Assembly (NCBI GenBank): GCA_038065555.1
Contig: JBBTQS010000001.1
Coordinates: 363,751 to 427,750, forward strand
Source of the DNA: Patescibacteria group bacterium
Lineage (GTDB): Bacteria > Patescibacteriota > Patescibacteriia > Magasanikbacterales > JBBTQS01
DNA: 64,000 bases
Reading direction: 5' to 3'
Below are positions 6,470 through 61,871 of this stretch, one piece after another. Numbering within the stretch: the first letter of the stretch is position 1; every line of letters starts with the position of its first letter. The position numbers were made by a program, and so were the translations under genes. The notes beneath the pieces were generated by a model. It had not been told where the DNA came from. It was given only the letters and a program-made list of their open reading frames with translations, and made no database searches.

Positions 6470-8287
6470 ATGCTCGACCGCATTCGCAATTTTTGCATCA
6501 TTGCACATATTGATCATGGCAAGTCCACACTCGCGGACCGTCTTCTCGAATTGACGCACACGGTGTCTGCGCGCGAAATGAAATCACAGTTGCTCGACCA
6601 GATGGATATCGAGCGCGAGCGCGGCATCACCATCAAATTGCAGCCAGTGCGCATGAAGTACACGCATCCGACGCGCAAGGAAGAGTACACACTCAACCTC
6701 ATTGATACGCCAGGACATGTGGACTTCACGTACGAAGTGTCACGATCACTCGCTGCTGTAGAAGGCGCGCTCTTGCTCGTAGACTGCACCCAAGGAGTGC
6801 AGGCACAGACACTTGCCAACCTCTATCTCGCACTCGAGCAGAACCTCGAGATTATTCCTGTCCTCAACAAGATCGATCTTCCTGCTGCTGAAGTAGAAAA
6901 AACCCGCGAGGAAATCAAAGGACTCATTGGCTGCCGCGACGAAGACATTATTCTCGCAAGCGGCAAGACTGGTGCTGGTGTGGAAGAAATTCTCCAAGCA
7001 ATTGTCGAACGTGTCCCTCCACCAAAGGGAGCAGAGTCTTCCCCACTTCGCGCATTGATTTTTGACTCCTACTACGATGAATTCCGCGGTGTAGTCGCGT
7101 CTGTGCGTGTTATTGATGGTGCGATGGATTCGCGTGCGCCATTGCGATTCATTGGAACTGGCCGCGACACCCAGCCGCTCGATGTTGGCTATTTCACTCC
7201 CAAGTTCAAGGTGACAGACCGTATTGCCACAGGCGAGATCGGCATGCTCGTCACAGGACTCAAAGACCTCAAGACCTGTCGCGTCGGTGACACCATCACT
7301 CTCACGTCCACTCGTGACGGCGTATTGCAACTCGAAGGATACAAAGAAATCAAGCCGATGGTTTTTGCCGGCATCTTCCCGAAGGAAGGCGACGGCTATT
7401 CTGCGCTGCGTGATGCGATGGAGCGACTCGTGCTGTCTGATTCGTCGTTGCAATTCGAACCTGAGCATTCACGTGCCCTTGGCTATGGATTCCGCTGCGG
7501 ATTCTTGGGTCTGTTGCACCTAGAAATTGTGCAGGAGCGATTGCGCCGCGAGCACCATCTTGAAATCACTGCGACGATTCCTTCGGTTGCGTACCGCGTG
7601 TCCAAGAATGACGGCGAAATTATCACCATCAAGAGTCCGCAGGATTTGCCGGAGCAGAATCACATTCGCAGTATCGAAGAGCCTTGGATGAATGTAGATA
7701 TTGTCACCACGCATGACACGATCGGCAATGTCATGACACTCGTGCAGGAGAAGCACGGTGAATACATCACCACAGAATTCCTCGCCTCAGTCACTGGCCA
7801 ACGCCGCGTGATTCTTCACTATCGCATGCCGCTTGCTGCGATCCTTGTAGACTTCTACGACAAGCTCAAGTCTGTGAGCTCTGGATACGCATCGCTCAAC
7901 TACGAGTTCTTCGAAATGCGTCCGGCTGATATTATCCGCCTCGACATCATGATCGCAGATGAGCCTGTTGAAGCACTCGCAACACTTGTCTGGCGCGAAG
8001 AAGCGTTCCACCATGGTAAGATCATCGTAGAGAAGTTGAAGGGCACGCTGCCGCAGCAAATGTTCGTGATCAAGATTCAAGCAACGATTGGTGGCAAAGT
8101 CATTGCGAGCGAACGCATCTCAGCACTTCGCAAAGACGTAACTGCCAAGCTGTACGGCGGTGACGTAACTCGCAAGCGCAAGCTGCTCGAAAAGCAGAAA
8201 AAAGGTAAGAAAAAAATGATGGAAATGGGTGCGGGCAAAGTCGATATCCCTCCTGAGGCGTATCTGGCAGTGCTGCGTCGCTCTTAA
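6470..8287 (+). CDS. lepA: Elongation factor 4 (LepA)
   Basis: IRNFCIIAHIDHGKSTLADRLL, DTPGHVDF and NKID G-domain motifs, plus the LepA C-terminal domain. The ATG at 6470 is preferred over the in-frame TTG at 6458. Confidence 0.93.
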   Translation: MLDRIRNFCIIAHIDHGKSTLADRLLELTHTVSAREMKSQLLDQMDIERERGITIKLQPVRMKYTHPTRKEEYTLNLIDTPGHVDFTYEVSRSLAAVEGALLLVDCTQGVQAQTLANLYLALEQNLEIIPVLNKIDLPAAEVEKTREEIKGLIGCRDEDIILASGKTGAGVEEILQAIVERVPPPKGAESSPLRALIFDSYYDEFRGVVASVRVIDGAMDSRAPLRFIGTGRDTQPLDVGYFTPKFKVTDRIATGEIGMLVTGLKDLKTCRVGDTITLTSTRDGVLQLEGYKEIKPMVFAGIFPKEGDGYSALRDAMERLVLSDSSLQFEPEHSRALGYGFRCGFLGLLHLEIVQERLRREHHLEITATIPSVAYRVSKNDGEIITIKSPQDLPEQNHIRSIEEPWMNVDIVTTHDTIGNVMTLVQEKHGEYITTEFLASVTGQRRVILHYRMPLAAILVDFYDKLKSVSSGYASLNYEFFEMRPADIIRLDIMIADEPVEALATLVWREEAFHHGKIIVEKLKGTLPQQMFVIKIQATIGGKVIASERISALRKDVTAKLYGGDVTRKRKLLEKQKKGKKKMMEMGAGKVDIPPEAYLAVLRRS

Positions 8288-18720: not shown

Positions 18721-18724
18721 AGTG

Positions 18725-19429
18725 TTATGCAATACAATGTGTTTCGAGATAGGTCTTGGCTGCACGCATGGCGCCGATGGATGTGTTGTAATCCATACGC
18801 ATCGGTCCGATGATTCCCATGAGACTCTTCGTGTTCCCTTCCCACGCAAATGGGACGAACATGATGGTGCACGAGTCACCAAACGGATTGCCTGGGCCAA
18901 TATGCATATGCATATCCTTGTCCCCGATGAGACGGTAGAGATCTGGCGCAATGTCATCAAATCGATCGAGCAACGCCGTAACATTTTGCACCGTGCCCAT
19001 TTCTGCAAATTCAGGTTGACTGAATAAGTGCGTGAGACCGGTGTAGTATGTCTGCTCTCGCGAGAGCACAAGGAACACAGCAGCATTGAGCGCTTCTGCC
19101 TGTTGCTTTGCAATATGTTTGATGGCGCGCGCGATATCTGTTACATCTGGCTGCTCAGACAATGCTGCAAAGAACGATTCAGGAACGGTTGGCTGCAGGA
19201 AATGCTCGACATACTTGCGGTATGCACGCGCAGTAGGAATGCGACCCGCACTCGTATGCGGCGAGATCACATAGCCTTCTTCTTCCAACTCCTTGAGGTC
19301 ATTGCGCACCGTTGCTGAGCTTACCGAAAGGTCGAGGAACGTAAGGAGCGCCTGGGAGCCAACTGGCTCAGCAGACGTAACGTACAAATCCACGATTCCT
19401 TTGAGTAATTCCTCTTTGCGGTCTGGCAT
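18725..19429 (-). CDS. hrcA: Heat-inducible transcription repressor HrcA
   Basis: VGSQALLTFLDLSVSSATVRNDLKELEEEGYVISPHTSAGRIPT is the HrcA winged-helix signature. The start is probably the ATG at 19429 rather than the TTG at 19444. Confidence 0.88.
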   Translation of the reverse strand: MPDRKEELLKGIVDLYVTSAEPVGSQALLTFLDLSVSSATVRNDLKELEEEGYVISPHTSAGRIPTARAYRKYVEHFLQPTVPESFFAALSEQPDVTDIARAIKHIAKQQAEALNAAVFLVLSREQTYYTGLTHLFSQPEFAEMGTVQNVTALLDRFDDIAPDLYRLIGDKDMHMHIGPGNPFGDSCTIMFVPFAWEGNTKSLMGIIGPMRMDYNTSIGAMRAAKTYLETHCIA

Positions 19430-19456
19430 AGGGCTTGCCCCCAATATAACGCAAGA

Positions 19457-19483
19457 TTAGCACTCATGTCAAGAGAGTGCTAA
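19457..19483 (-). promoter_or_regulatory. CIRCE operator (HrcA binding site) upstream of hrcA-grpE-hsp20-dnaK-dnaJ
   Basis: TTAGCACTC-ATGTCAAGA-GAGTGCTAA is a perfect match to the CIRCE consensus TTAGCACTC-N9-GAGTGCTAA, about 28 nt upstream of the hrcA ATG. Confidence 0.92.
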
Positions 19484-19503
19484 TCACTAAGAAATCCGCG
19501 GAT

Positions 19504-20307
19504 TTAGAAGAGAAAAAGCCAAGCAATCACCCCTGCCAATGCCAGGCGATACCAGATAAAAATCGAGAGACTCTGCTTTGCGAGCACGCGCATCAACCAC
19601 CGAATTACGGCGTACCCGACTACGAACGCGGTCGCGAGACCTACGAGCACTGGAGTAGCAAGGAGGGCTTGCGCTCCAGACTCCTGCGCCACCTGAACTG
19701 CCTTCAATGATCCCGCGCCGAGAAACGCTGGAATACCGAGCAAAAATGCAGTGCGCGCAGCCATGCGTGCGTCAGCTCCCATGCGGATCGCTGCAGCCAT
19801 CGTGATGCCCGAACGTGACACACCTGGGAATAGCGCCATTGCCTGCGCCAATCCAATCCACAACCATTGCTCCAGTCTCCACCGCTCCACTTTCCCGAAC
19901 CGCTGCGCGCGCAATCGCAGATGCGCCATAATGAGCGCGAGTGTTCCCACCGCACTTCCCACAAGCACCATCACCGGTGTACGTGTGAACTGTTCAATCA
20001 CATCATCGAAGAGCAATCCCACAATGACTACAGGAATCGTACCCAATATCATCCCCCACGCTGTGGTCGACTCCTGCGGATATTTGCGAGGATTGAAAAA
20101 CCCTCGAATAATTTCAAGGAGATCATTCCAAAAATACACAACAATGGCGAGCAGCGTACCAAGGTGCAACATGGCATCAAACGCCAACCCCATGTCACTC
20201 CACCCCAACACACGCGGAACCAAAATCAAATGCCCTGAGCTAGAGATTGGCAAAAACTCAGTGATTCCTTGAACAGCACCCAGGACTAACGCTTGTACTG
20301 CTTCCAT
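19504..20307 (-). CDS. uppP: Undecaprenyl-diphosphatase (UppP/BacA)
   Basis: GITEFLPISSSGHLIL and PGVSRSGITMAA are BacA signatures, 267 aa. Confidence 0.92.
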   Translation of the reverse strand: MEAVQALVLGAVQGITEFLPISSSGHLILVPRVLGWSDMGLAFDAMLHLGTLLAIVVYFWNDLLEIIRGFFNPRKYPQESTTAWGMILGTIPVVIVGLLFDDVIEQFTRTPVMVLVGSAVGTLALIMAHLRLRAQRFGKVERWRLEQWLWIGLAQAMALFPGVSRSGITMAAAIRMGADARMAARTAFLLGIPAFLGAGSLKAVQVAQESGAQALLATPVLVGLATAFVVGYAVIRWLMRVLAKQSLSIFIWYRLALAGVIAWLFLF

Positions 20308-20310
20308 ATT

Positions 20311-21573
20311 CTAGAGTTGACTCGTATCACGTCGCACGAGTGCTCCTGTGATCCACGCTGCAGTCACACGCACACGATTCCACCATCCTGAGAGCTGTTG
20401 CAAAAATACAATGCGACGAATGATCCACAAGAATCGACCAGAATACGTGCGATTGCCTATCTCACCTACAGCAAACCAATCACCAATTGGCATGATGTAC
20501 CCACGCTGCGTAAACGCAACAGATTCCATCGGAGATTGCTTGCGTCCCAGCACGCGCAAGAGATTGCGTGCAACAATAGGTGCAAGTGTTGCTGCTGCCT
20601 GCGCTGTTTGTGGAACAAATGGAACACCGTCCTCCTTGCCGTCTAGCGCCGCAGCATCACCCAACACAAATACATTTGAATGCCCTGGCAGGTGTAGTTG
20701 TGGTGTAATGCGAACCTGGCCTGCTGCTGTGAGGAATGTGTCAGCCAGCTTGCCCTTCATCACCGATTGCACGCCACTGCTCCAAATAGGAGTCTGCGTG
20801 AGAATGCGCTCGCCCGTTGTGAGCGTGACACTATCCTCATCAATAGCAGCTGCTCCGGTGTCGAGAAGGACTCGCACACCCAATTGTTGTAGTCGCCGAA
20901 GTGCTATAGCAGATGTTGCTTCACCAAATTGTGGCAACAATCGCGGTCCACGCTGTACCACAGTGATTCCAATTTCTTCGAGTCGAATCGATCCATATAA
21001 TCCACACAACTCATGCTGTGTGAGATCAGCGATCTGCCCTGCGAGCTCCACGCCAGTTGGGCCGCCACCAATAATGACGAATTGCAATTGTGCACGCCGC
21101 GCAGTAACACGCGTCTCTGTCGACGCCTTCTCGAATTGCTCGAGTAATCGATTGCGTAGCCGCACCGCATCGGTAAGTGTCTTGAGTGGGAATGCGTTTT
21201 TCTCTGCTCCAGGAACACCGAACCACTGCACTTTTGAGCCCAATGCTACAACGAGTACATCATACGAGAGCGTACGCTCTTCGCCATGCGCTGCATAGCT
21301 CACCTTCTTTTTTGCTGGATCCACAGCCGTCACTTCTGCTTGCAAGAAGGTATCTGAGGCGCACGAGCTCATAATTTCGCGCAGCGGCTGCACAATATGC
21401 GAGCGCTCGACGCTTCCTGTTGCCACCTCGTGCAACATCGGCGTGAAGGTGAAGAAATTGTTGCGATCAATAACAGTAATGCGCATCGCGGTATCATGTC
21501 GAGCATGATGCAACGCGCGATACACACCCACACCAGCAAATCCGCCACCAAGAATTACAATATGTTTTGCCAT
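20311..21573 (-). CDS. ndh: Type II NADH dehydrogenase (NDH-2) / FAD-dependent pyridine nucleotide-disulfide oxidoreductase
   Basis: MAKHIVILGGGFAGV (FAD GxGxxG) and a second dinucleotide fold (QFVIIGGGPTGVELAG). Trimmed to the ATG at 21573. Confidence 0.8.
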   Translation of the reverse strand: MAKHIVILGGGFAGVGVYRALHHARHDTAMRITVIDRNNFFTFTPMLHEVATGSVERSHIVQPLREIMSSCASDTFLQAEVTAVDPAKKKVSYAAHGEERTLSYDVLVVALGSKVQWFGVPGAEKNAFPLKTLTDAVRLRNRLLEQFEKASTETRVTARRAQLQFVIIGGGPTGVELAGQIADLTQHELCGLYGSIRLEEIGITVVQRGPRLLPQFGEATSAIALRRLQQLGVRVLLDTGAAAIDEDSVTLTTGERILTQTPIWSSGVQSVMKGKLADTFLTAAGQVRITPQLHLPGHSNVFVLGDAAALDGKEDGVPFVPQTAQAAATLAPIVARNLLRVLGRKQSPMESVAFTQRGYIMPIGDWFAVGEIGNRTYSGRFLWIIRRIVFLQQLSGWWNRVRVTAAWITGALVRRDTSQL

Positions 21574-35434: not shown

Positions 35435-35508
35435 TGGCAGGGGCGGTAGGAATCGAACCTACGCAGAAGGTTTTGGAGACCTTTGTACTACCATTATACG
35501 ACGCCCCC
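35435..35508 (-). tRNA. tRNA-Trp (anticodon CCA)
   Basis: The reverse complement folds as a cloverleaf GGGGGCG...GGTCTCCAAAACC...GGTTCGATTCC...CGCCCCTGCCA. The anticodon loop is CTCCAAA. 3' CCA is encoded. Confidence 0.85.
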
Positions 35509-35572: not shown

Positions 35573-35728
35573 CTACTTTGTTTCCTTGTGTGGGGTGTGC
35601 TTCACGCAAAACTTGCAGTGCTTATTTGTAAGCATGCGAGCCTTGATGATCTTCTTGTTCTTGTGGGTGTCATGCGTCACGCGGCTGCATGCGCTGCACT
35701 CAAGGTGAATCAAATTGTCTTGTGACAT
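35573..35728 (-). CDS. rpmG: 50S ribosomal protein L33
   Basis: 51-aa ORF below the ORF-track size cutoff. MSQDNLIHLECSACSRVTHDTHKNKKIIKARMLTNKHCKFCVKHTPHKETK carries the CxxC...CxxC zinc ribbon and the Lys-rich L33 pattern. It sits inside the tRNA cluster. Confidence 0.8.
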   Translation of the reverse strand: MSQDNLIHLECSACSRVTHDTHKNKKIIKARMLTNKHCKFCVKHTPHKETK

Positions 35729-35763
35729 ATGTCAGTAATTAACTGGTCTTTCAATACTCTCGG

Positions 35764-35836
35764 AGCCATCTCCGGGGTTCGAACCCGGGACCTACGGTTT
35801 ACAAAACCGTTGCTCTACCAGCTGAGCTAAGATGGC
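35764..35836 (-). tRNA. tRNA-Thr (anticodon UGU)
   Basis: The reverse complement reads GCCATCTTAGCTCAGCTGGTAGAGCAACGGTTTTGTAAACCGTAGGTCCCGGGTTCGAACCCCGGAGATGGCT. Anticodon loop TTTGTAA. CCA is not encoded. Confidence 0.85.
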
Positions 35837-35840
35837 GCTG

Positions 35841-35922
35841 TGGGCAGGGGGGGATTCGAACCCACGAAGGCGTAGCCAGCAGATTTACAGTCTGCCCCGG
35901 TTGACCACTTCGGTACCTGCCC
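35841..35922 (-). tRNA. tRNA-Tyr (anticodon GUA), long variable arm
   Basis: The reverse complement reads GGGCAGGTACCGAAGTGGTCAACCGGGGCAGACTGTAAATCTGC...GGGTTCGAATCCCCCCCTGCCCA. Anticodon loop CTGTAAA. Confidence 0.8.
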
Positions 35923-36003
35923 ATGGAAGTAACGGCGGTATTGTATGCAATTGTCGTATTTTTGTCAAAAGGACCAACTTCCTCAAATTTCCTTAAAAAA
36001 AGC

Positions 36004-36039
36004 TCACCCCACCACCGACGTCTGTCAGTGATGGGGTGT
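36004..36039 (-). terminator. Rho-independent terminator of the S1-S2 small-gene pair
   Basis: TCACCCCA-(20 nt)-TGGGGTGT followed by TTTTTTAAGG on the minus strand, 30 nt past the S2 stop. Confidence 0.6.
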
Positions 36040-36069
36040 AGCAGTGCCGGACGTCGTACGTCCGTACTG

Positions 36070-36366
36070 TCAGTCGCCCGATCGCTTCATACGATCGAAC
36101 GAGTCTGGGTCGTTGTTCCAGGCCTCGAGTGTCTCCTCGAAGGCCCACTGCGTATTGGACCGAAGCGTCGCGAGGTCTCCCTCACAGACGAACCAGTACA
36201 ATCGCCTCTTCGTATGCGGCCCGCCGCCCTCATAGTCCGGCGTGGTGCTGCTCAACGCCAGTGTCATGATATCCCGCATCTTGCCGGGGAAATCTTTGCG
36301 TTGGAGGTGGAGCACCCGAGGTGGGCACTCCTCGGAGCTGCCAGCTGGTCTTGCTTCGAGATACAT
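36070..36366 (-). CDS. Small hypothetical protein S2 (~98 aa), paralog of S1
   Basis: Start trimmed to the ATG at 36366 (MYLEARPAGSSEECPP...). AGGAGG RBS 6 nt upstream. Shares MYL-RP-SS-CP...DFP...YW-VC...WN-P-SF with the adjacent gene. Confidence 0.65.
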   Translation of the reverse strand: MYLEARPAGSSEECPPRVLHLQRKDFPGKMRDIMTLALSSTTPDYEGGGPHTKRRLYWFVCEGDLATLRSNTQWAFEETLEAWNNDPDSFDRMKRSGD

Positions 36367-36368
36367 GG

Positions 36369-36662
36369 TCAGCCTCCTGTCGCCTTCTTGAACGACTCGG
36401 GCTTCGCGTTCCAGCGCTTGAGCTGGGAACGAAGCGCTCGCTCCGTGCAGTCCCAGACGCGTCGCGGCTCGTAGTCGCACACGTACCAGTACATCTGGTC
36501 GCTGGGGCTGGCATCTGGATCCGAGTCGGGACTCGAGGAACTCCCCATGACCTCCTGGATCAGCCCCTCGAGATCGTCATTCGGGAAATCCGACGATTCG
36601 AGAACGATGACCATCGCAGGGCAGTCCGCGGAGCTGTTGGGCGGTCGATTATCGAGATACAT
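36369..36662 (-). CDS. Small hypothetical protein S1 (~97 aa), paralog of S2
   Basis: Start trimmed to the ATG at 36662 (MYLDNRPPNSSADCPAMV...). GAGGAG RBS 6 nt upstream. Acidic, Ser-rich linker. Confidence 0.65.
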   Translation of the reverse strand: MYLDNRPPNSSADCPAMVIVLESSDFPNDDLEGLIQEVMGSSSSPDSDPDASPSDQMYWYVCDYEPRRVWDCTERALRSQLKRWNAKPESFKKATGG

Positions 36663-36794
36663 GAGATGCTCCTCATTTGAACAGAACGAATTCCACATCA
36701 CTCGGGACCCCGAGCTGCGGAAAACAAATATGTATACCACATTTTTAGGCTTTTGTCAAGATGTGCATTGAAAAACAGAAAAATTACAAAAGAA

Positions 36795-36822
36795 AACACC
36801 CCACTCTCTCGAATGGGGTGTT
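36795..36822 (-). terminator. Terminator hairpin ACACCCCA...TGGGGTGT downstream of P2
   Basis: 8-bp stem, 10-nt loop, followed on the minus strand by TTTTCTTTTGTAATTTTTCTGTTTTTC. Confidence 0.6.
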
Positions 36823-36903
36823 CTGTTAGTCGTGCGACGGCAATCCGCCACATGGACGCTGGAGCGTCCGCCATCGAAGTCCGCTCATTGGATACTCCTC
36901 CTG

Positions 36904-37656
36904 TTAGACGGTGAAGGGATGAATGATGGGAAGCTCTTGCGTTCGCAGCGGCTGGTACATCCGATCCTTGCGCGACGCAGGGCTCTCGGATTGCACGTAG
37001 ATTGCGTTCGGGTACACTCGTTCGAGCGTTGCGCCCTCGAACGCATATGCTGCGACCTGTCGTTGCGCCGCCTCACGCGTTCCGCCAGGGAACAGGATGT
37101 CAGGGAACGCTCGCAGGTGTTGATCTTCTTGATGCACGTGCAGTGCTTGTGCTGACTCACTCGCCCACCGCACTGCGTGCGCGTGAGTCACGTGAAGTGC
37201 CGCACGAGATTCGATCGAACTCCACGTCGCAACATCCCAGTTCTCAGGAATCTGTTTGCGTCCCTCCTCGATCATCAGCTCACAGGCTGTTGTACTCTCA
37301 CTCTGATCACAGCTCCAGCCCCACGTGCGAACCGGCTCACAATCAGGGAGCACCACCAGCATCTGTGCATCGACATGATCACGAATGCGCTGAAGCAACG
37401 ATTGCATCTGTCCGTACTTGCGACTGCGCAGGAAATACGTTTCGAACAGATCGAGTCGCAGTTCCTCTTTGTCCTTGTACGTTCCCAGGCAGGAGAATGC
37501 GATGAACTGCAGCGGTTGGTTCGCATGCAATGCTGCGAGCACTCGCGCAGGCGCGTAGAATGATTCTTGCTCACAGGCCTCGAACAGTTCGAGCACTCGT
37601 TGTGCACTCGTACTGAGCGCACGCCTGAGCTGTCGTTCTTCCTTTGTTGATGCCAC
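36904..37656 (-). CDS. Hypothetical protein P2 (250 aa), paralog of P1
   Basis: Shares PLQFIAFSC, LLQRIRDHVDAQMLVVLPDCEP and a C-terminal RMYQPL block with the upstream gene. No known motif recognised. Confidence 0.6.
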   Translation of the reverse strand: MASTKEERQLRRALSTSAQRVLELFEACEQESFYAPARVLAALHANQPLQFIAFSCLGTYKDKEELRLDLFETYFLRSRKYGQMQSLLQRIRDHVDAQMLVVLPDCEPVRTWGWSCDQSESTTACELMIEEGRKQIPENWDVATWSSIESRAALHVTHAHAVRWASESAQALHVHQEDQHLRAFPDILFPGGTREAAQRQVAAYAFEGATLERVYPNAIYVQSESPASRKDRMYQPLRTQELPIIHPFTV

Positions 37657-37734
37657 GTGCCACCTCCTCGGTGCGAGATCAGCTGTGAAGCGTCCTGACC
37701 TTCAGGACGCTCGTGCAGCTGACCGCTGCACACG

Positions 37735-38592
37735 TCATTGATATCCTCCGTTATCAACGCCGTAGAAATACACAATCGGCAACTGCGCATCATACTGCTG
37801 TGCAATCAGCGGTTGATACATCGTTGATCGCAGGACTGACGGATTCTCATTCTGGATGAGAATCATTGGCATGAGCGACTTGTACATCCACCGCGCCTGC
37901 AACGCATACTCTACGAATTTGCGACGAATCCAATCGCGCAAGACTGTCTCGTCAGGCGCCGTGAGTCCATCGAAATATTTGCCCACAGTGAACTGTGTTC
38001 GCAGTGCACGCAACTCCCATTCGCGATCAGTCTCACTCCCCACTCCCCGCGCCAACTCCTGATCGAACTCTTGCTCGAACGTCTGTGCACGCAACTGATT
38101 CTGTTCCTGCTCCCAGACATACCAACTCACCACACGCGCACGGAGCGCTGGATATGTTGCTGCAACCCATGCTTCCAACGCATCGCGATACTGTGCCCAT
38201 CGCGCTGCGAACTGCTCGACTACCGACGCGCGATCAGCCTGGGACAACTCCTGGAACTGCTGCCGATAGATGTAGTACGGATCTGTATTACCAATCATGA
38301 TCACGACTTCGACTGGATACACCTCGCGTAGCGCCTGCACAATCCTCGTGAGCCGCGGCAAATCTGCTTCCAGATTGTTGCCCGCAGTATCAGTGCGCAC
38401 GTACATCCACGGCGTGTCGCTGTACATCTCTCGCGCAGTGATCGTTGAACACGTGAACGTCACGAACCGCAGTGGTACACCCGCTTCCACAGCACGCTCT
38501 ACTGCCTGTTGAACCGCGGCGCGATACGTATCCTCTGCGGCGTCATACACCGCAAGTTTTTCCATGATGTCTCGAATGATTTGTTTTTGCAT
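37735..38592 (-). CDS. Hypothetical protein P1 (285 aa), paralog of P2
   Basis: Start trimmed to the ATG at 38592 (MQKQIIRDIMEKL...). The longer ORF-track start would read through the upstream terminator tail. Carries PLRFVTFTC, VVIMIGNTDPYYIY and TMYQPL. Confidence 0.6.
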   Translation of the reverse strand: MQKQIIRDIMEKLAVYDAAEDTYRAAVQQAVERAVEAGVPLRFVTFTCSTITAREMYSDTPWMYVRTDTAGNNLEADLPRLTRIVQALREVYPVEVVIMIGNTDPYYIYRQQFQELSQADRASVVEQFAARWAQYRDALEAWVAATYPALRARVVSWYVWEQEQNQLRAQTFEQEFDQELARGVGSETDREWELRALRTQFTVGKYFDGLTAPDETVLRDWIRRKFVEYALQARWMYKSLMPMILIQNENPSVLRSTMYQPLIAQQYDAQLPIVYFYGVDNGGYQ

Positions 38593-38614
38593 ACTGTAAT
38601 GAAGAGAAAAAAGA

Positions 38615-38642
38615 AACACCCCTCTCTTTCGAGAGGGGTGTT
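38615..38642 (-). terminator. Perfect 12-bp hairpin AACACCCCTCTC-TTTC-GAGAGGGGTGTT upstream of P1
   Basis: Followed on the minus strand by TTTCTTTTTTCTCTTC. Near-identical in style to the hairpins at 36795-36822 and 36004-36039. It could terminate an unannotated transcript from the 38643-38787 gap. Confidence 0.5.
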
Positions 38643-38787
38643 GGCGAAATGATGGTCGGAAATCCTACGCATCAAAGCACACCTCTGTCGAAAGAGAAGC
38701 GTGTGGATGCGGAGCATGAATTGCAAGTGTAGCGCGCAAGATTTGATTCATACATACCCACCGTAGCGAATCTCAAAAAATCTGTCA

Positions 38788-38816
38788 AATGAATGAGGTC
38801 CTGTCACAGCTGAGCT
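38788..38816 (-). terminator. Terminator hairpin after the 766-aa gene
   Basis: GTCCTGT-(15 nt)-ACAGGAC 20 nt past the stop, followed by a T-rich stretch (CATTTGACAGATTTTTTGAG). Confidence 0.5.
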
Positions 38817-38835
38817 GCAACAGGACCTTCGTTGT

Positions 38836-41136
38836 TCACGCCTTCTGCGCTGGGGCAGACTGAGCGTGTGCCGTGAGTCGCGCAGCGACCTCCTCTTGGA
38901 GGAGGCGTCGCTGCGTCTCATCAGGTGCCACCGTAGCGATCTGATCGAGTGCTGCCTTGAAGATTCTCGCAACTTCACGCTGACGATGCAGACACTGTTC
39001 GAGCTCCTGAATGCGTTGCGCTCGTATCTGCTGTTCCTCGATTCGATACCGAAGCTCCGTTTCCTCCTTCTCGTAATCTGCCCGAACTTGCACGAGCTCT
39101 GCTTGGATCGACTCCTCCGAAATAACATAGTACGAGGGCGTCACCGGGGGCTCCTCGTCTTGCACGTCATCTTCCGGAACTCGTTCGCGCCTGACGCATC
39201 TGAATAGGCTCGGCGCTTCGCTGTCGATACCCTCTCGCTCTCCTGGAATGTAGTATCGATCGAGATTCAGCAACCCCTCCTCGTCCACCAGCTTGCGCAG
39301 GAAGTATTCCACGAAGTCCTCCGAACCATCCCAGCCGAGAACAGCACGAACTTCATCGATGTGCCCAGTGCTCAATGCGAAGTAGTCTCTGTCCTTTGCA
39401 TTCTCTGTCGCACGTACGAGCACCTCCTCGAGTTGATCGAGAGCCACACCCTCCTTACGTAGACGACCGATGATCACAGCAGCATGACTCGCGCCAGCGT
39501 TCTGATCTGTTTCCATTGCGAGGAACGCGTACCATCGGGACGTATCATTGAACTTCAGTCGACGCTGATTACTCTCTTCAGAGTACCTCGTCGACGTCAC
39601 ATCTGCGAGACCGTCTTTGATGAGAAGCGACGCGAATTCTGCTGCTGTGACATGGAGCATGAGCCCCGCATTGAACCACGCCGCATCTTCGATCTCCTGG
39701 ACCTTGAAACCGCTGCGCCCATAGAACTCCTTGACGACATCGGTGTAGGCCGCCCGACACGCATCGATCTGCGCCTGCGTGAGATTGTCTGCTTTGGATG
39801 TTTGAGAACCAGTTGCCATGCTGACCTCCGTTGTGCCGCCCGTCGATGCGCAGCGGCAATGCAGCGTCCTGATTTCGCCATCGCTTGGCGATCGCTCAGG
39901 ACGAACTTCGAGCAGCGACCCAGCAGGTGTCACTGCGAACTGTTCGAGGAACCGTTCCACGAACAGTTGATGCTGACGGTGTTGAGACCAGTTGAGCGCA
40001 GTGCGCAGCACACCTGCTACACTCGCCGTGACCTCGAACCACCCAGACTCATCAGTGGGAATGGTGCGCAATGCAGTTGTGAGGGCTTCACGGAGTGTGA
40101 GATCCTCCGAGACTTCCTCGACAGCACTGATACACCTCTCTTCGCCCCAGATTTTGCCCAGTCGCATTGCGATACGGTCTGCAGTGCGGTCATGAGCAAC
40201 CAACCGGAGCTCGCGCTTGTCGCTCTTCTTGTCAACAGTCGCGTGCGTGAGATCCTCGAGATGCGCATCGCGCACCAACGCATCAATCACATCCGCTGCA
40301 GTATTGGGTTTGCCGTGCCCAGTATTAGCTGCGAACCACGGCACACGCTTCACCCGTTCGAGCGTGAACGAACTTGCGCCGTAGAAAGCACTCACGAGCG
40401 CCTCGTGTGCGGCTTGCGCGGTTCCTGGTGACAACCCCTGGGAGACAGTCGGGGCACGCACCACAGATACTTCGCTCTTCCGAAATCGTCCACCGCATTC
40501 CTTGGGAAGGCGATCGAGATCGAACGCGAACTCACCTGGGATCGTGCTTCCCTTCGCTCGTGGTGGTTTGTCGATACGCAGTGCGCTATGCTTGCGCGCG
40601 AGTGCAATCGCAGCGAGCGCAAGACCCTTGTCCGAGACAACTTCAATCGCGCGAGCAAGAGTGAACTCTTTCTCTGACACTGCACCTACCAGCATCTTCA
40701 GGTTGACCACAGTGATATCCGCGTCAGCAGATTCCGTGACTGTTCTTTTATGCGCCTGAAGAGGCATCGGTACAGATTCGGTGCTGCGCCCGTGCAGCTT
40801 GTTCGCGAACCTGTATGACACGTGCTCGTCACCTGCAGAGAGTCCTCCACGAACCAGATGCAGTAATCCAGCTTCGTGGTAGTGAGCCAGTCGCTGACCC
40901 CAACTCTTTGCCGTGCCGTCTGAAAGGATTGGCGCAATTGATGCACCTGAAAAGACCAATCCACTGGACAGTTCTCGGGAGAGCCGCAGGAAATGCGGTT
41001 CATTGCTGAGATCTTCATTCACTGTAGCCTCCAGAAACGGTGATTGTTGTGGTTGCGAGTACCCACTCGCTTGCGCGATCCTACCAATCTTTGCATGACG
41101 GGTCAATGTGTCAGCGTTGATCGTCGAACCCACCAT
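38836..41136 (-). CDS. Large hypothetical protein (766 aa) with three internal repeats and a C-terminal coiled-coil; possibly phage antirepressor/BRO-N-like
   Basis: Repeated blocks: EKEFTLARAIEVVSDKGLALAAIALA, then AFYGASSFTLERVKRVPWFAANTG, then EFYGRSGFKVQEIEDAAWFNAGLM. The C-terminal approximately 100 aa are heptad-rich (ELVQVRADYEKEETELRYRIEEQQIRAQRIQELEQCLHRQ). GC looks higher than the core genes. Confidence 0.6.
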   Translation of the reverse strand: MVGSTINADTLTRHAKIGRIAQASGYSQPQQSPFLEATVNEDLSNEPHFLRLSRELSSGLVFSGASIAPILSDGTAKSWGQRLAHYHEAGLLHLVRGGLSAGDEHVSYRFANKLHGRSTESVPMPLQAHKRTVTESADADITVVNLKMLVGAVSEKEFTLARAIEVVSDKGLALAAIALARKHSALRIDKPPRAKGSTIPGEFAFDLDRLPKECGGRFRKSEVSVVRAPTVSQGLSPGTAQAAHEALVSAFYGASSFTLERVKRVPWFAANTGHGKPNTAADVIDALVRDAHLEDLTHATVDKKSDKRELRLVAHDRTADRIAMRLGKIWGEERCISAVEEVSEDLTLREALTTALRTIPTDESGWFEVTASVAGVLRTALNWSQHRQHQLFVERFLEQFAVTPAGSLLEVRPERSPSDGEIRTLHCRCASTGGTTEVSMATGSQTSKADNLTQAQIDACRAAYTDVVKEFYGRSGFKVQEIEDAAWFNAGLMLHVTAAEFASLLIKDGLADVTSTRYSEESNQRRLKFNDTSRWYAFLAMETDQNAGASHAAVIIGRLRKEGVALDQLEEVLVRATENAKDRDYFALSTGHIDEVRAVLGWDGSEDFVEYFLRKLVDEEGLLNLDRYYIPGEREGIDSEAPSLFRCVRRERVPEDDVQDEEPPVTPSYYVISEESIQAELVQVRADYEKEETELRYRIEEQQIRAQRIQELEQCLHRQREVARIFKAALDQIATVAPDETQRRLLQEEVAARLTAHAQSAPAQKA

Positions 41137-41771
41137 CCGAACAACGTCACACCAACTCCCGCTGCCAGTAATCCGCCCACAGACGTCGCAACTAATGCAG
41201 CAGGACTACGCAACACCACTAACGCCGACCCTCCAAAGCAAAAGAACGCGGTCGGCAACACACCTACTGCGTTTTGGATAACAAAAAATTTCAAAAATCC
41301 GATCGGAGTGAGTCCTGCGGCGTAAGCTACGACCTCAGGCAATGACGCGAGACACACTCGTGCTACAACAAACCCTTTCGTTGTTGTAAGCACCGCTCGC
41401 ACCTTCGCAACCACACCCATTTCATTCTTCACCATGCGCTCAACAGAGGCTCGGCCAAGTCTGCGACTGATCAGAAATGCAATAGCGCTCCCCAGCGCAT
41501 CGCCAAGAAGCAACAATACGAATCCAACATTGAATCCAAATAGCGCACCAGCAAGTGGATAGAGTGGCCCACCTGAGATTGGCGCGAATACAAGAGTACT
41601 CGCCTTCGCAAGCACAAATACTGCAGGCGCCCAGATGCCAGCACGAATGATCCACGCCTGTAACGTTGCATACTCTACGAACCACACAACACCAAAAATC
41701 ACCAACAGCATGAGCACTACGCCCACGCTATTTTTGAACCCATCTTTGTACGCTTGTAGTCCGACACGCAT
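41103..41771 (-). CDS. DedA/TVP38 (VTT-domain) family membrane protein
   Basis: The ORF-track N-terminus (ADVAQLVERIHGKDEVTSSILV) is simply the translation of the tRNA-Thr gene, so I trimmed to the ATG at 41771. The remainder is polytopic with DedA-like G-rich helices (FAPISGGPLYPLAGALFGF). Confidence 0.6.
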   Translation of the reverse strand: MRVGLQAYKDGFKNSVGVVLMLLVIFGVVWFVEYATLQAWIIRAGIWAPAVFVLAKASTLVFAPISGGPLYPLAGALFGFNVGFVLLLLGDALGSAIAFLISRRLGRASVERMVKNEMGVVAKVRAVLTTTKGFVVARVCLASLPEVVAYAAGLTPIGFLKFFVIQNAVGVLPTAFFCFGGSALVVLRSPAALVATSVGGLLAAGVGVTLFGWWVRRSTLTH

Positions 41772-41804
41772 ATATTCGATGATACCAGTTGTGTCGTAAA
41801 CAAA

Positions 41805-41831
41805 GAACAGTTCCGCAATGCGGAACTGTTC
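41805..41831 (-). terminator. Terminator of tRNA-Thr(GGU)
   Basis: GAACAGTTCCGC-AAT-GCGGAACTGTTC is a perfect 12-bp stem followed by TTTGTTT on the minus strand. Confidence 0.6.
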
Positions 41832-41839
41832 TTTTGAGC

Positions 41840-41915
41840 TGGAGCCGACGACCAGGATTGAACTGGTGACCTCATCCTTACCATGGATGCGCTCTACCAA
41901 CTGAGCTACGTCGGC
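41840..41915 (-). tRNA. tRNA-Thr (anticodon GGU), CCA encoded
   Basis: The reverse complement reads GCCGACGTAGCTCAGTTGGTAGAGCGCATCCATGGTAAGGATGAGGTCACCAGTTCAATCCTGGTCGTCGGCTCCA. Anticodon loop ATGGTAA. Confidence 0.85.
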
Positions 41916-60908: not shown

Positions 60909-61871
60909 CTAGTTGGCCTTGCTGCTCTCGTATTCCTCGAGCATCTGCTCATGCTTCTTCCGCCGACGCTCGTTGCGCACGGTGTTGAAGTGAGCAGCGA
61001 TTTTCAGGATGGCTGCGCCTTCGTCCCGAAGCTGCACCTCGCGAGACCCAGGCTTGTGTTCACCGTAGAGAAGCGCGATGGCATGTCCAGGCTGTGGCAC
61101 CGACTGGGAATATGCACGAGGCTGGTGTCGGTGACCCGAAGGCATCTTGACCTCGTACACCGTCTGGCGCATGCGACCCCAGGAGTCGGTGAGTCGATCC
61201 CCGTCAGTGATCACGGTGAGTAGAGACTCTTTCACCATGGCTTCGTAGAGCTCGATCGCGAGCGAGCCCACGATCAAGTCCGACGCCCGCCAGCAGCGAT
61301 TTTCGGGCCGCTGACACTCCGTGATGAAGTCCTGCTTCTCCGCGAAATGCCCCTCCTGAATCGTAGCATTGAGCACACCGCGATGCGCCTTCTGAAGTTC
61401 ATCCCACGCGCGTCGGAAATCTCCTCGGACGATGAACCGACGCGTTTGGTGGGCCCAGTATTCGTCAGCGAGAGAGATGTCGGTCTTGCAGTAGAGCGGA
61501 TGCTCGGGGTGCGTGACCAGGTCTGCGTGATGTGCCAGGAGATGCGCGAGGACCTCGTGTCCCCGTAGAAGTTTCAGGAGTCGACGTGGACTGAGTTCAT
61601 TCTCATCCCACCACAAGGCGGGCATCTGTACCATTGCGGAGAAGAAGCATTTCTGTTGATTTGCACGAGCGAAGTGATCCTGAACCTCGACGATCAGCGC
61701 CTCACCGAACTCGAGATGGCAGCACCGACGCAGAAGTGCGCCAGCACTCATACCCTCTTCAGCCAGCTTGCAGATGATGCGCTTTGCCACCTTGAGGCTC
61801 CGCACCTGCTGAATACCCTCCACGTCATCACGGACGAAGCAGAGCAAAGACAGAAATTGATCTTGATCCAC
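60909..61871 (-). CDS. Hypothetical cytoplasmic protein (320 aa)
   Basis: Long ORF with even codon usage and high apparent GC. His-rich (HLLAHHADLVTHPEHP). No motif recognised. It sits where rplA/rplK would be expected. Confidence 0.5.
   Translation of the reverse strand: MDQDQFLSLLCFVRDDVEGIQQVRSLKVAKRIICKLAEEGMSAGALLRRCCHLEFGEALIVEVQDHFARANQQKCFFSAMVQMPALWWDENELSPRRLLKLLRGHEVLAHLLAHHADLVTHPEHPLYCKTDISLADEYWAHQTRRFIVRGDFRRAWDELQKAHRGVLNATIQEGHFAEKQDFITECQRPENRCWRASDLIVGSLAIELYEAMVKESLLTVITDGDRLTDSWGRMRQTVYEVKMPSGHRHQPRAYSQSVPQPGHAIALLYGEHKPGSREVQLRDEGAAILKIAAHFNTVRNERRRKKHEQMLEEYESSKAN

Follow-up and report, generated by a model that had tools for sequence, protein, structure and literature searches.

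The fold of TyrRS/TrpRS, cyclodipeptide synthases (CDPSs) and isonitrile synthases is common to families that make natural products from amino acids or aminoacyl-tRNAs (PMC3105412; PMC12945691). In CDPSs, a catalytic Ser follows the first strand and a Tyr-x3-Glu-x-Pro motif (Tyr178...Glu182) lies in the helix before the last strand (PMC3105412). The IsnA family binds an aromatic amino acid and joins the nitrogen of L-Trp or L-Tyr with a carbon of ribulose-5-phosphate (PMC7949033). On the regulatory side, the YerC/HisR repressor needs L-histidine to bind DNA and controls his genes (PMC9413887). We analysed a 64-kb stretch (hereafter the window) from a Patescibacteria group bacterium of the candidate phyla radiation (CPR), in which two paralogous genes, P1 and P2, a micropeptide gene, pep, and a leader form a predicted operon that we link to histidine. 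CPR bacteria account for a large share of bacterial diversity and have tiny genomes with many conserved genes that lack an assigned function. They largely lack amino-acid biosynthesis and depend on hosts for amino acids. We consider it likely that the segment is a mosaic, with a CPR histidine-limitation operon P1-P2-pep set among fast, lineage-specific genes at a tRNA-bounded recombination hot spot. An earlier reading of the sequence (the original prediction) had flagged the same segment.

The interval between tRNA-Thr(GGU) and tRNA-Tyr is 5.9 kb long, and all its genes are on the minus strand. Their order from tRNA-Thr(GGU) is DedA, BIG, P1, P2, pep, S2, S1 and then tRNA-Tyr. Loci of relatives are labelled L001-L042. 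The operon and its leader consist of the following features.

38760-38788, minus strand: inferred promoter-like site TTGACA-17-TACGGT; the -10 hexamer is weak and the site is not in the consensus scan
38665-38751, minus strand: leader open reading frame (ORF) of 28 codons, MNQILRATLAIHAPHPHASLSTEVCFDA, with three His in six codons (38701-38718)
38678-38703, minus strand: hairpin U, a candidate antiterminator partner, whose 5' arm starts at the last His codon
38607-38642, minus strand: T(a), a 12-bp GC-rich hairpin with a U-run, ending 15 nt 5' of the P1 ATG (38592)
37735-38592, minus strand: P1, 285 residues, member of a CPR-wide family
36904-37656, minus strand: P2, 250 residues, shorter acidic paralog of P1
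36826-36888, minus strand: pep, a 20-codon gene, MSGLRWRTLQRPCGGLPSHD, with a strong Shine-Dalgarno sequence, AGGAGG; absent from the original prediction
36787-36824, minus strand: T(b), the operon terminator, 1 nt past the pep stop codon and 83% identical to T(a)

P1 and P2 had been called paralogs, and the relationship holds. BLASTP aligns only the C-terminal 60 residues (E = 3e-6); profile-profile comparison gives a 97% probability (E = 4.7e-11) over 197 columns. The accompanying claim of a tandem duplication in an island fails. Judged from its distribution, P1-P2 is instead an ancient two-paralog cassette across CPR phyla. P1 has 98 homologs of ~285 residues (36-98% identity) in genomes labelled Magasanik-, Nomura-, Doudna-, Sung-, Ames-, Woese-, Davies-, Komeili- and Uhrbacteria, Paceibacterota, WWE3 and others, and the family spans Parcubacteria, Microgenomates and WWE3 labels. 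Among 29 GTDB species-representative loci (two cut by a contig or flank end and unscored), P2 is the next downstream gene in 20, as in the window, and a longer P1-like protein, P3, directly precedes P1 in seven (Microgenomates/WWE3 type). In the Doudnabacteria locus L020 the order is tRNA-Thr(GGU), yerC, P1, P2, tRNA-Tyr, with the bounding tRNA species of the window. Most P1 proteins of the family are basic (median pI 9.1, net charge +7), and the P2 proteins are acidic. To judge only from their adjacency, P1 and P2 probably form a heteromer. No prior description of the P1-P2 family was found in the literature searched, the coverage of which was incomplete and does not prove novelty.

Two loci show a split gene: P2 is in two ORFs in L039 (6867-7664) and P1 is in two ORFs in L024 (2-775); these may be pseudogenes or assembly errors. 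The tRNAs adjoining the cassette mostly have a GUN anticodon (the queuosine-modified set), which may be chance or may point to a function related to tRNA. They are tRNA-Tyr GUA in the window, L007, L040, L017, L020 and L039, tRNA-His GUG in L031, L034 and L036, and tRNA-Asp GUC in L016 and L019. Counter to the queuosine idea are tRNA-Ser(CGA) in L008 and L009, tRNA-Glu in L025 and three tRNA-Tyr genes on the opposite strand.

Four independent lines of sequence evidence tie the cassette to histidine sensing: HisR, a His-codon ORF with a terminator, a T-box and hisS. In ~14 loci, a Trp-repressor-family gene of ~100 residues lies directly upstream of P1 (or P3). The encoded YerC/YecD proteins score 65-96 bits with TIGR02531 (cut-off 42.2), and the best PDB match is E. 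eligens HisR (3g1c, E = 7e-29), as against E ~2e-3 for E. coli TrpR. The second line comes from a survey of 23 non-redundant loci. In 19 of the 23, an ORF that contains a run of two or three in-frame His codons has its end 30-130 nt before P1 (mean 1.3, maximum 6 in shuffles). About half of the loci have this run in the tail of yerC (VHHHADS, LHHHFSS, VHHHTPP, VPHHTPP, NHHHTGN); elsewhere the ORF is short and stands by itself (MPHHPT..., MHHPV..., ...IHHPS..., ...LHHHAEP..., ...THHST..., ...LHHIS..., ...LHHTS...). A terminator hairpin with a U-run, often CCCTTCTC...GAGAAGGG, is located 4-30 nt before the P1 start in ~21 of the 23 loci. As this leaves no room for a separate promoter, P1 would have to be transcribed through the terminator. 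The short ORF with consecutive His codons persists in loci that lack yerC (L007, L013-L016, L019, L021, L026 and L038, and L035 upstream of P3), and L008 has yerC plus a separate leader ORF of this kind. No prior description of CPR His leaders was found in the literature searched; its coverage was incomplete, so this is not proof of novelty.

The third line is a candidate T-box leader (RF00230) with CAC at the specifier position, directly upstream of P3 in the WWE3 locus L037 (64.2 bits, E = 8e-14). Weaker matches with a short stem I and the loop GU-CAC-GA occur in L036 (25.8 bits, E = 5e-4) and L031 (20.6 bits, E = 0.014); in both, the T-box is followed by tRNA-His and then by P3-P1. The reduced T-box-like leaders directly upstream of tRNA-His (L031 4540-4885, L036 4465-4773) would be an unusual arrangement in their own right. 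The fourth line is linkage to hisS, which lies directly downstream of P1 in L029, L030, L034, L036 and L037, and directly upstream in L009/L010, where its stop overlaps the P1 start.

The AlphaFold2 model of P1 (63-sequence alignment) has a predicted local distance difference test score (pLDDT) of 92.2 and a predicted template modelling score (pTM) of 0.90. It is a parallel-sheet Rossmann fold that resembles the catalytic core of class Ic aminoacyl-tRNA synthetases (aaRSs). Invariant residues cluster at the C-terminal strand ends: F46-T47-C48-S49, G101-N102-T103-D104, Q247-N248-E249-x-P251 and M258-Y259-Q260-P261. Foldseek matched the model to the isonitrile synthase PIsnA (9dh4, E = 1e-5); TM-scores are only 0.3-0.45, and TyrRS scores as well as CDPS or isonitrile synthase. 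The model is similar to both the TyrRS/TrpRS Rossmann catalytic domain and the isonitrile synthase fold. The 285 residues are filled by the catalytic-core-like fold, with no anticodon-binding domain. HIGH and KMSKS were not found, and no histidine is among the (nearly) invariant columns of the 63 sequences; the position after strand 1 reads F-T-C-S and that after the last strand Q-N-E-K-P-S. Adenylation is unlikely given the lack of HIGH/KMSKS. The helix before the last strand carries Tyr229/Gln232 in P1 and Tyr204/Glu207 in P2, and Glu249-x-Pro251 follows the last strand.

The predicted operon is leader, P1, P2 and pep. The pep motif GG[LMI][PA]xH is found directly 3' of P2 in 21-22 of ~24 P2-type loci and not once on a 421-kb reverse-strand control. 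Between the window and L007 there are six synonymous codon changes in pep and one nonsynonymous change, and this synonymous excess indicates a translated gene under constraint. The Gly-Gly and the near-C-terminal His are invariant; the tail past the His varies from 0 to at least 6 residues. No pep was found in loci of the P3 type (Microgenomates-type P3-P1). A TnaC-like arrest peptide is not favoured, given the lack of a conserved Trp and the different genes that lie downstream from locus to locus.

A tiny, strongly conserved and efficiently translated ORF right after both enzymes in nearly all P2-type loci raises an alternative, that P1-P2-pep is a peptide-based biosynthetic cassette, either of a scaffold-peptide kind or akin to those for peptides that are made by the ribosome and modified after translation (RiPPs). 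The enzymes would modify or extend pep at its GG-x-P-x-H end and, under histidine shortage, yield a small molecule related to histidine. This might be, for example, a histidyl mimic linked to a peptide, which would inhibit host histidyl-tRNA synthetase (HisRS) and so derepress host histidine synthesis. The invariant Gly-Gly and His of pep, the apparent regulation of the cassette by histidine shortage, the general dependence of CPR bacteria on hosts for amino acids and a fold common to natural-product families that act on amino acids or aminoacyl-tRNAs (PMC3105412; PMC12945691) would all suit such a role. However, no protease, transporter or tailoring gene is conserved beside the cassette, Microgenomates-type loci have P3-P1 without pep, the variable tail after the pep His is hard to reconcile with it, and an enzyme lacking HIGH/KMSKS would be unlikely to adenylate. 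Nor was a synthetase-fold RiPP enzyme of this kind described in the literature searched, the coverage of which was incomplete. We consider this alternative unlikely.

The leader lies in the 245-nt spacer between BIG and P1, which folds far better than its shuffles (z = -6.0). The 3' arm of hairpin U and the 5' arm of T(a) are complementary; a 26-nt inverted repeat between the arms of the two hairpins reaches 85% complementarity. In L007, which has no BIG, the same layout stands directly 3' of DedA. The promoter-like site at 38760-38788 is kept there, the ORF is MKQFVLAIHVPHHTPSLSKEVCLDA with an in-frame 9-nt indel and T(a) is identical. The core 115 nt of the leader region are 84% identical between the window and L007, compared with 74% for the P1 coding sequence. 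With the motif VPHHTP recurring in the YerC tails of L020 and L017, the leader ORF looks like a relic; it is probably what remains of the His-rich C-terminal tail of a lost yerC/hisR. A custom yerC profile found no homolog in the window, and Rfam at E<=0.1 found only tRNAs in the interval, with no His_leader or T-box.

T(a), the first 'look-alike terminator' of the original prediction, is probably an attenuator. Transcription would start ~190 nt upstream of P1, and a ribosome on the leader ORF would either stall at the His codons or reach the stop codon. Under a shortage of His-tRNA, stalling would put the ribosome over the 5' arm of U; the 3' arm of U could then pair with the 5' arm of T(a), which would let transcription read through into P1. 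When His-tRNA is plentiful, the ribosome would reach the stop codon, T(a) would form and transcription would end 15 nt before the P1 start. Other CPR lineages would reach the same control via a HisR/YerC repressor, a His-specifier T-box or co-transcription with hisS. In constrained minimum-free-energy folds, ribosome position switches antiterminator and terminator in 6 of 19 loci; with a fold switch in so few and an ambiguous outcome for the window, the attenuator model rests on comparative evidence and not on thermodynamics.

The same data can be read with no attenuator at all. The His-rich tail would be a part of YerC, the hairpin would end yerC (BIG in the window), P1-P2 would be under the repressor or their own promoter, and the T-boxes would serve hisS. 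About half of the loci do have the consecutive His codons inside yerC, the terminator persists in most constrained folds at any ribosome position, and T-boxes classically control aaRS genes, with hisS present in those operons. This account falters on the terminator, which is only ~4-30 nt before P1, so that P1 must be transcribed through it, and on the loci without yerC (the window, L007 and others), in which a short His-codon ORF is still present, equally far from P1. In L008 a leader ORF of its own exists beside yerC, and P3-P1, located between T-box and hisS, would be co-regulated whatever the main target of the T-box. We regard it as distinctly unlikely.

The original prediction also held that the segment shares look-alike terminators, and these are real. 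CACCCC...GGGGTG hairpins occur in the window only at 36797-36820 and 38617-38640 (two matches, 0.01 in shuffles), and the copies at 36788-36822 and 38608-38642 are 83% identical over 35 nt. A longer variant ends the S genes (T(c), listed below). The resemblance of T(a) to T(b) is limited to this lineage. In JGI metagenomes, apart from one unrelated match, the hairpin turned up at this type of locus only. A genome-wide element of the repetitive extragenic palindromic (REP) or integron attC kind was rejected, with three copies only in the window; 28-32-nt stems with U-runs are ordinary terminators, and IntI is absent. L040 has a single hairpin at the place of P1-P2, from which came the idea that P1-P2 were lost or gained by recombination between T(a) and T(b). 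Nothing specifically supports this. On either side the L040 hairpin is flanked by sequence like that of T(b), and the entire leader-P1-P2-pep module is missing there, from just past the BIG stop to ~58 nt past the P2 stop.

In topological terms, P1 has an invariant Cys-Ser at the place of the CDPS catalytic Ser. Cys48-Ser49 follow the strand 41-47, after which CDPSs carry that residue (an equivalence in topology only). P1 and P2 could thus be divergent CDPSs or isonitrile synthases that make a secondary metabolite, for example a His-containing diketopiperazine; a bona fide Parcubacterium CDPS is in the PDB (7qau), and histidine-accepting CDPSs are known (PMC7613923). However, the Pfam models CDPS, DIT1_PvcA and tRNA-synt_1b give no match to any of the 63 family members even at E<=10, a PDB profile search with P1 found no CDPS, and the TM-scores are low. 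CDPS and IsnA systems have nothing that corresponds to the obligate paralog pair or to pep, and no IsnB/PvcB-type Fe/2-oxoglutarate oxygenase family of Pfam is present among the called neighbours in six contexts. All the sensing devices would switch on when histidine or charged tRNA-His is scarce, so a role in supply fits better than one in consumption, and this in turn argues against a plain CDPS or isonitrile synthase. The near-universal CPR spread and the hisS linkage likewise fit primary metabolism better than consumption of His-tRNA. We judge this explanation very unlikely.

Our best guess is that P1-P2 would bind histidine or a histidyl moiety in a pocket equivalent to the amino-acid pocket of TyrRS/CDPS. 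The pair would act without ATP activation and aid histidine supply or histidyl-tRNA formation, with pep as a cofactor, carrier or substrate. Taken as a whole, P1-P2 (or P3-P1) with pep may be an unrecognised, near-universal CPR histidine pathway. It would be run by a heteromeric, ATP-motif-free class Ic relative switched on at uncharged tRNA-His or low histidine, with the tail of the HisR gene doubling as an attenuator leader. We put this forward tentatively, as possible and short of probable.

Several points weigh against the main reading, a histidine-limitation operon with a leader attenuator. In 13 of the 19 loci the terminator forms in either constrained state, which calls for a kinetic argument. 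The window leader shows no clean minimum-free-energy switch: T(a) is far stabler than the pairing of the U 3' arm with the T(a) 5' arm, and a long-range U:T duplex is an alternative. The His codons of the window are not consecutive (H-A-P-H-P-H), the -10 hexamer is weak, and the promoter is a predicted one, as is the translation of the leader ORF. Because L013/L014, L016/L019 and L017/L020 are closely related, the independent lineages number fewer than 23. The His-rich tails could serve the YerC protein itself, and all three T-box matches are below the Rfam gathering score of 93 bits. The P1 of the window is acidic (pI 4.9, net charge -8), unlike its family. The residue equivalences to TyrRS, CDPS and IsnA rest on topology. 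If P1-P2 consumed His or His-tRNA as CDPS or IsnA do, induction by shortage would be paradoxical. Attenuation, the heteromer, histidine binding and any role of pep are all predictions from sequence.

The remainder of the interval and its borders comprise the following features.

41840-41915, minus strand: tRNA-Thr(GGU) (ARAGORN, Rfam), upstream edge of the variable region
41802-41834, no strand assigned: perfect 33-nt palindrome (16-nt arms, 1-nt loop) from the repeat search, between tRNA-Thr(GGU) and DedA
~41103-41771, minus strand: DedA/VTT-family membrane protein (PF09335), 222 residues
38836-41022, minus strand: BIG, lineage-specific, 728 residues (766 if read from ATG 41136)
38796-38828, minus strand: 15-bp perfect hairpin without a T-run, directly 3' of the BIG stop codon
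36731-36759, minus strand: promoter-like site TTGACA-17-TATACA of the S genes, as inferred from sequence
36369-36662, minus strand: S2, acidic lineage-specific protein of 97 residues, hypervariable between strains
36070-36366, minus strand: S1, 98-residue paralog of S2
35995-36038, minus strand: T(c), longer CACCCC...GGGGTG variant (hairpin 36005-36038), 3' of S1, ending the S genes
35940-35968: promoter of tRNA-Tyr itself, TTGACA-17-TACAAT
35840-35922, minus strand: tRNA-Tyr(GUA) (ARAGORN, Rfam), downstream edge of the variable region
35762-35836, minus strand: tRNA-Thr(UGU) (ARAGORN, Rfam)
35573-35728: rpmG
35435-35508, minus strand: tRNA-Trp (ARAGORN, Rfam)

The four minus-strand tRNA genes bound the interval, and the block with its ORFs is present as originally laid out (ARAGORN, Rfam, ORF list). 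Four syntenic relatives have the flanks GlyRS-M16-TIM-TPR-tRNA-Thr(GGU)-DedA ... tRNA-Tyr in common. The content between the borders differs.

Window: BIG, P1, P2, S2, S1
L001 (flanking proteins 99-100% identical): BIG, P1, P2 and one S2-type gene; S1 absent
L007 (flanking proteins 89-94% identical): P1, P2 and one S1-type gene; BIG absent
L040 (distance similar to L007): BIG, one S2-type gene and a 3' remnant of S1; P1-P2 absent

The tRNA-bounded stretch thus varies among close relatives, as an island would, but it does so piecemeal, gene by gene, and not as one inserted block. Nucleotide identity between the window and L001 is 0.95-1.00 in the flanks and in P1-P2. It falls from 0.97-0.99 to 0.70-0.78 right past tRNA-Thr(GGU), in DedA, is 0.81-0.91 in the last third of BIG, and in the S region is 0.58 or gives no alignment. 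DedA has 79% amino acid identity to the L001 allele and a synonymous divergence (dS) of ~1.0, although the flanks are 100% identical. Since the divergence starts right at tRNA-Thr(GGU) (L001 allele 6766-7461), a foreign DedA allele appears to have been imported by recombination. S2 has 55% amino acid identity to its L001 allele (dS 1.3). The ratio of nonsynonymous to synonymous divergence (dN/dS) against L001 is 0.43 for BIG, 0.10 for P1 and 0.07 for P2. By this measure, P1-P2 is under purifying selection and behaves like conserved housekeeping genes. On these comparisons, the stretch between the tRNAs is no integrated mobile element but a recombination hot spot, where alleles are replaced and genes gained or lost. 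The conserved operon would be embedded among a fast, lineage-specific DedA allele, BIG and S1/S2, which are swapped, duplicated or lost between close strains.

The original prediction had taken the segment for a genomic island or degraded prophage with a defence or conflict system. This finds no support, as neither an integrase nor an att repeat is present and no homolog of a phage or defence gene turned up. As the prediction itself had noted, none of the interval ORFs is an integrase; no integrase or recombinase lies at 35.9-41.9 kb, where the ORFs are all accounted for and family searches were negative. The proposed att site was sought with 22-nt and 32-nt probes of the tRNA-Thr(GGU) 3' end (up to 3 mismatches), which match only the tRNA itself in the window, so that the 3' end has no second copy there. 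S1, S2, P1, P2 and BIG were said to fall in no nameable family, and they have no match in Pfam, NCBIfam or PHROGs, and none at E<=1 in PADLOC. In the proposed hidden Markov model and structure search, the profile libraries were blank for all five, whereas P1 yielded the aaRS-like fold model; PDB sequence searches with P1, S and BIG profiles gave nothing significant. IMG/VR viral contigs contain no relatives of BIG, S or P1. Elsewhere, L004 has a tyrosine integrase and a large serine recombinase (18724-20870) ~8 kb downstream of P1-P2, with unrelated genes between; they have no counterpart in the window.

The segment had been described as GC-rich (56-60%, as against 45-53% for housekeeping genes). 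An excess exists, overstated in that figure, of only ~3 points (~1 standard deviation), and codon bias, checked together with the sliding GC profile, is ordinary. In 1-kb windows, the segment has a GC content of 0.544-0.573, compared with mostly 0.48-0.55 elsewhere; one window outside it, at 61-62 kb, reaches 0.570. Its genes have a GC of 0.53-0.57 (0.526 +/- 0.027 in the rest of the window) and a third-position GC (GC3) of 0.59 (0.548 +/- 0.057). The gene at 60909-61871 has a GC of 0.58 and a GC3 of 0.69, above anything in the flagged segment, and GC at the level of the segment is thus not exceptional in this genome.

An island or degraded prophage at tRNA-Thr(GGU) with a defence or conflict system of duplicated gene pairs would account for tRNA borders, content that differs among relatives, slightly raised GC, fast near-orphans (dN/dS 0.3-0.5 for BIG and S, at most 0.1 in neighbouring genes) and S alleles shuffled between strains as under diversifying selection, but we hold it highly improbable given the negative searches, the ordinary codon bias, a P1-P2 that is CPR-wide, under purifying selection and tied to histidine and hisS, a cassette between the same two tRNA species in the distant L020, and DedA at this position in four of four relatives. 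For P1-P2 the island reading is already largely refuted. A role of BIG and S in conflict or host interaction is possible, with no positive evidence.

The DedA-like protein was correctly named; its VTT domain (PF09335) scores 41.8 bits (E = 1.7e-10) against a Pfam cut-off of 33.9. The 288-residue DedA ORF overlaps the tRNA, and the real gene is at ~41103-41771. The palindrome at 41802-41834 is kept in L001 and L002 and could be a bidirectional terminator or an operator. BIG had been described as a repeat and coiled-coil protein of 766 residues. The internal duplication (residues ~200-395 and ~455-650, E = 2e-9) and a C-terminal coiled coil of ~90 residues are borne out. The length is most likely 728, from the GTG at 41022, which has a GGAGG Shine-Dalgarno sequence 5' of it and at which all homologs begin. 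BIG is composed of ~six winged-helix-like modules, and a fold search gave generic winged-helix matches only, which would suggest nucleic-acid or protein binding in a generic sense; we propose no function beyond that. The hairpin at 38796-38828 is in L001 and is gone together with BIG in L007.

S1 and S2, confined to this lineage, are acidic proteins of ~100 residues with strong Shine-Dalgarno sequences, and the paralogy noted earlier stands (28% identity, BLASTP E = 4e-14). S2 has only 2 matches in 5.8e9 proteins. S1 is the sole S gene in L007, is absent from L001 and is left as a 3' remnant in L040/L042; the L001 S gene is nearer to the L040 S gene than to the S2 of the window. The remnant of the S1 3' end (...ATLESWNEDPDSFNLMRR) is found 3' of an S2-type gene at 10612-10878 in L040 and at 795-1061 in L042, which suggests an ancestral state with both genes (S2-S1) and a later decay of S1.

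If the proposed pathway exists, it could support histidyl-tRNA formation or histidine salvage in organisms unable to make histidine; alternatively, it could build a peptide-linked histidine analogue that manipulates the histidine supply of the host. The use of the C-terminal tail of a repressor gene as an attenuator leader peptide would be an arrangement not described so far. A pair of hypothetical proteins is now placed in histidine/tRNA-His physiology by three sensing devices and the hisS linkage, which poses a testable question on auxotrophic symbionts. For annotation, gene callers missed the micro-ORF and the leader ORF, and an intergenic 'terminator' is more likely a regulatory switch.

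Among known regulatory devices, the his/trp leader attenuators (His_leader RF00514; candidates in the B. cereus group, PMC9413887) are like the leader of the window in having a short codon-enriched ORF followed by a terminator hairpin and, as a candidate in the window, a mutually exclusive antiterminator just 5' of the regulated genes. They differ in that the CPR leaders have only 2-3 His codons, coincide at about half the loci with the C-terminal tail of the HisR-type repressor gene, and precede a synthetase-like operon instead of his biosynthesis genes; the window leader has no Rfam match. HisR/YerC and the His T-box are the devices upstream of the cassette elsewhere in the CPR, whereas the window has only the relic leader ORF.

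Among known enzymes, P1 is like the CDPSs (PF16715; AlbC, Rv2275) a single Rossmann domain of 220-290 residues, with no anticodon-binding domain and no HIGH/KMSKS. A nucleophile candidate (Cys48-Ser49) is located after the first strand and a Tyr...Gln/Glu pair before the last, in topological terms. In contrast to CDPSs, the Tyr-Gln spacing is i+3 (i+4 in CDPSs), P1 always has a paralog beside it, P2 or P3, and in most cases a micropeptide gene as well, and it is CPR-wide where CDPSs are sporadic; regulation by histidine shortage and linkage to hisS would be odd for a consumer of aminoacyl-tRNA. The isonitrile synthases (IsnA/PvcA/DIT1, PF05141; PDB 3e59, 9dh4) are of similar size (~300 residues). 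They give no profile match and only 11-15% identity to P1, and a paralog pair, pep and histidine regulation are unknown in that family. Class Ic aaRSs are obligate dimers, and a P1-P2 heteromer would mimic the dimer of TyrRS/TrpRS. The Asp after strand 2 and the Tyr and Gln in the helix before the last strand of P1 may recall the triad that binds the α-ammonium group in TyrRS. P1 differs from TyrRS/TrpRS in having no invariant histidine, HIGH, KMSKS, anticodon-binding domain or tRNA-synt_1b match. Recruited aaRS paralogs (HisZ, GluQRS/YadB, AsnA, MshC and the amino acid:carrier-protein ligases) keep their similarity to synthetases and the ATP motifs; P1 and P2 do not. P1-P2 would thus add a fourth branch to the fold of TyrRS/TrpRS, CDPS and isonitrile synthase, and the first to occur as a paralog pair with a micropeptide.

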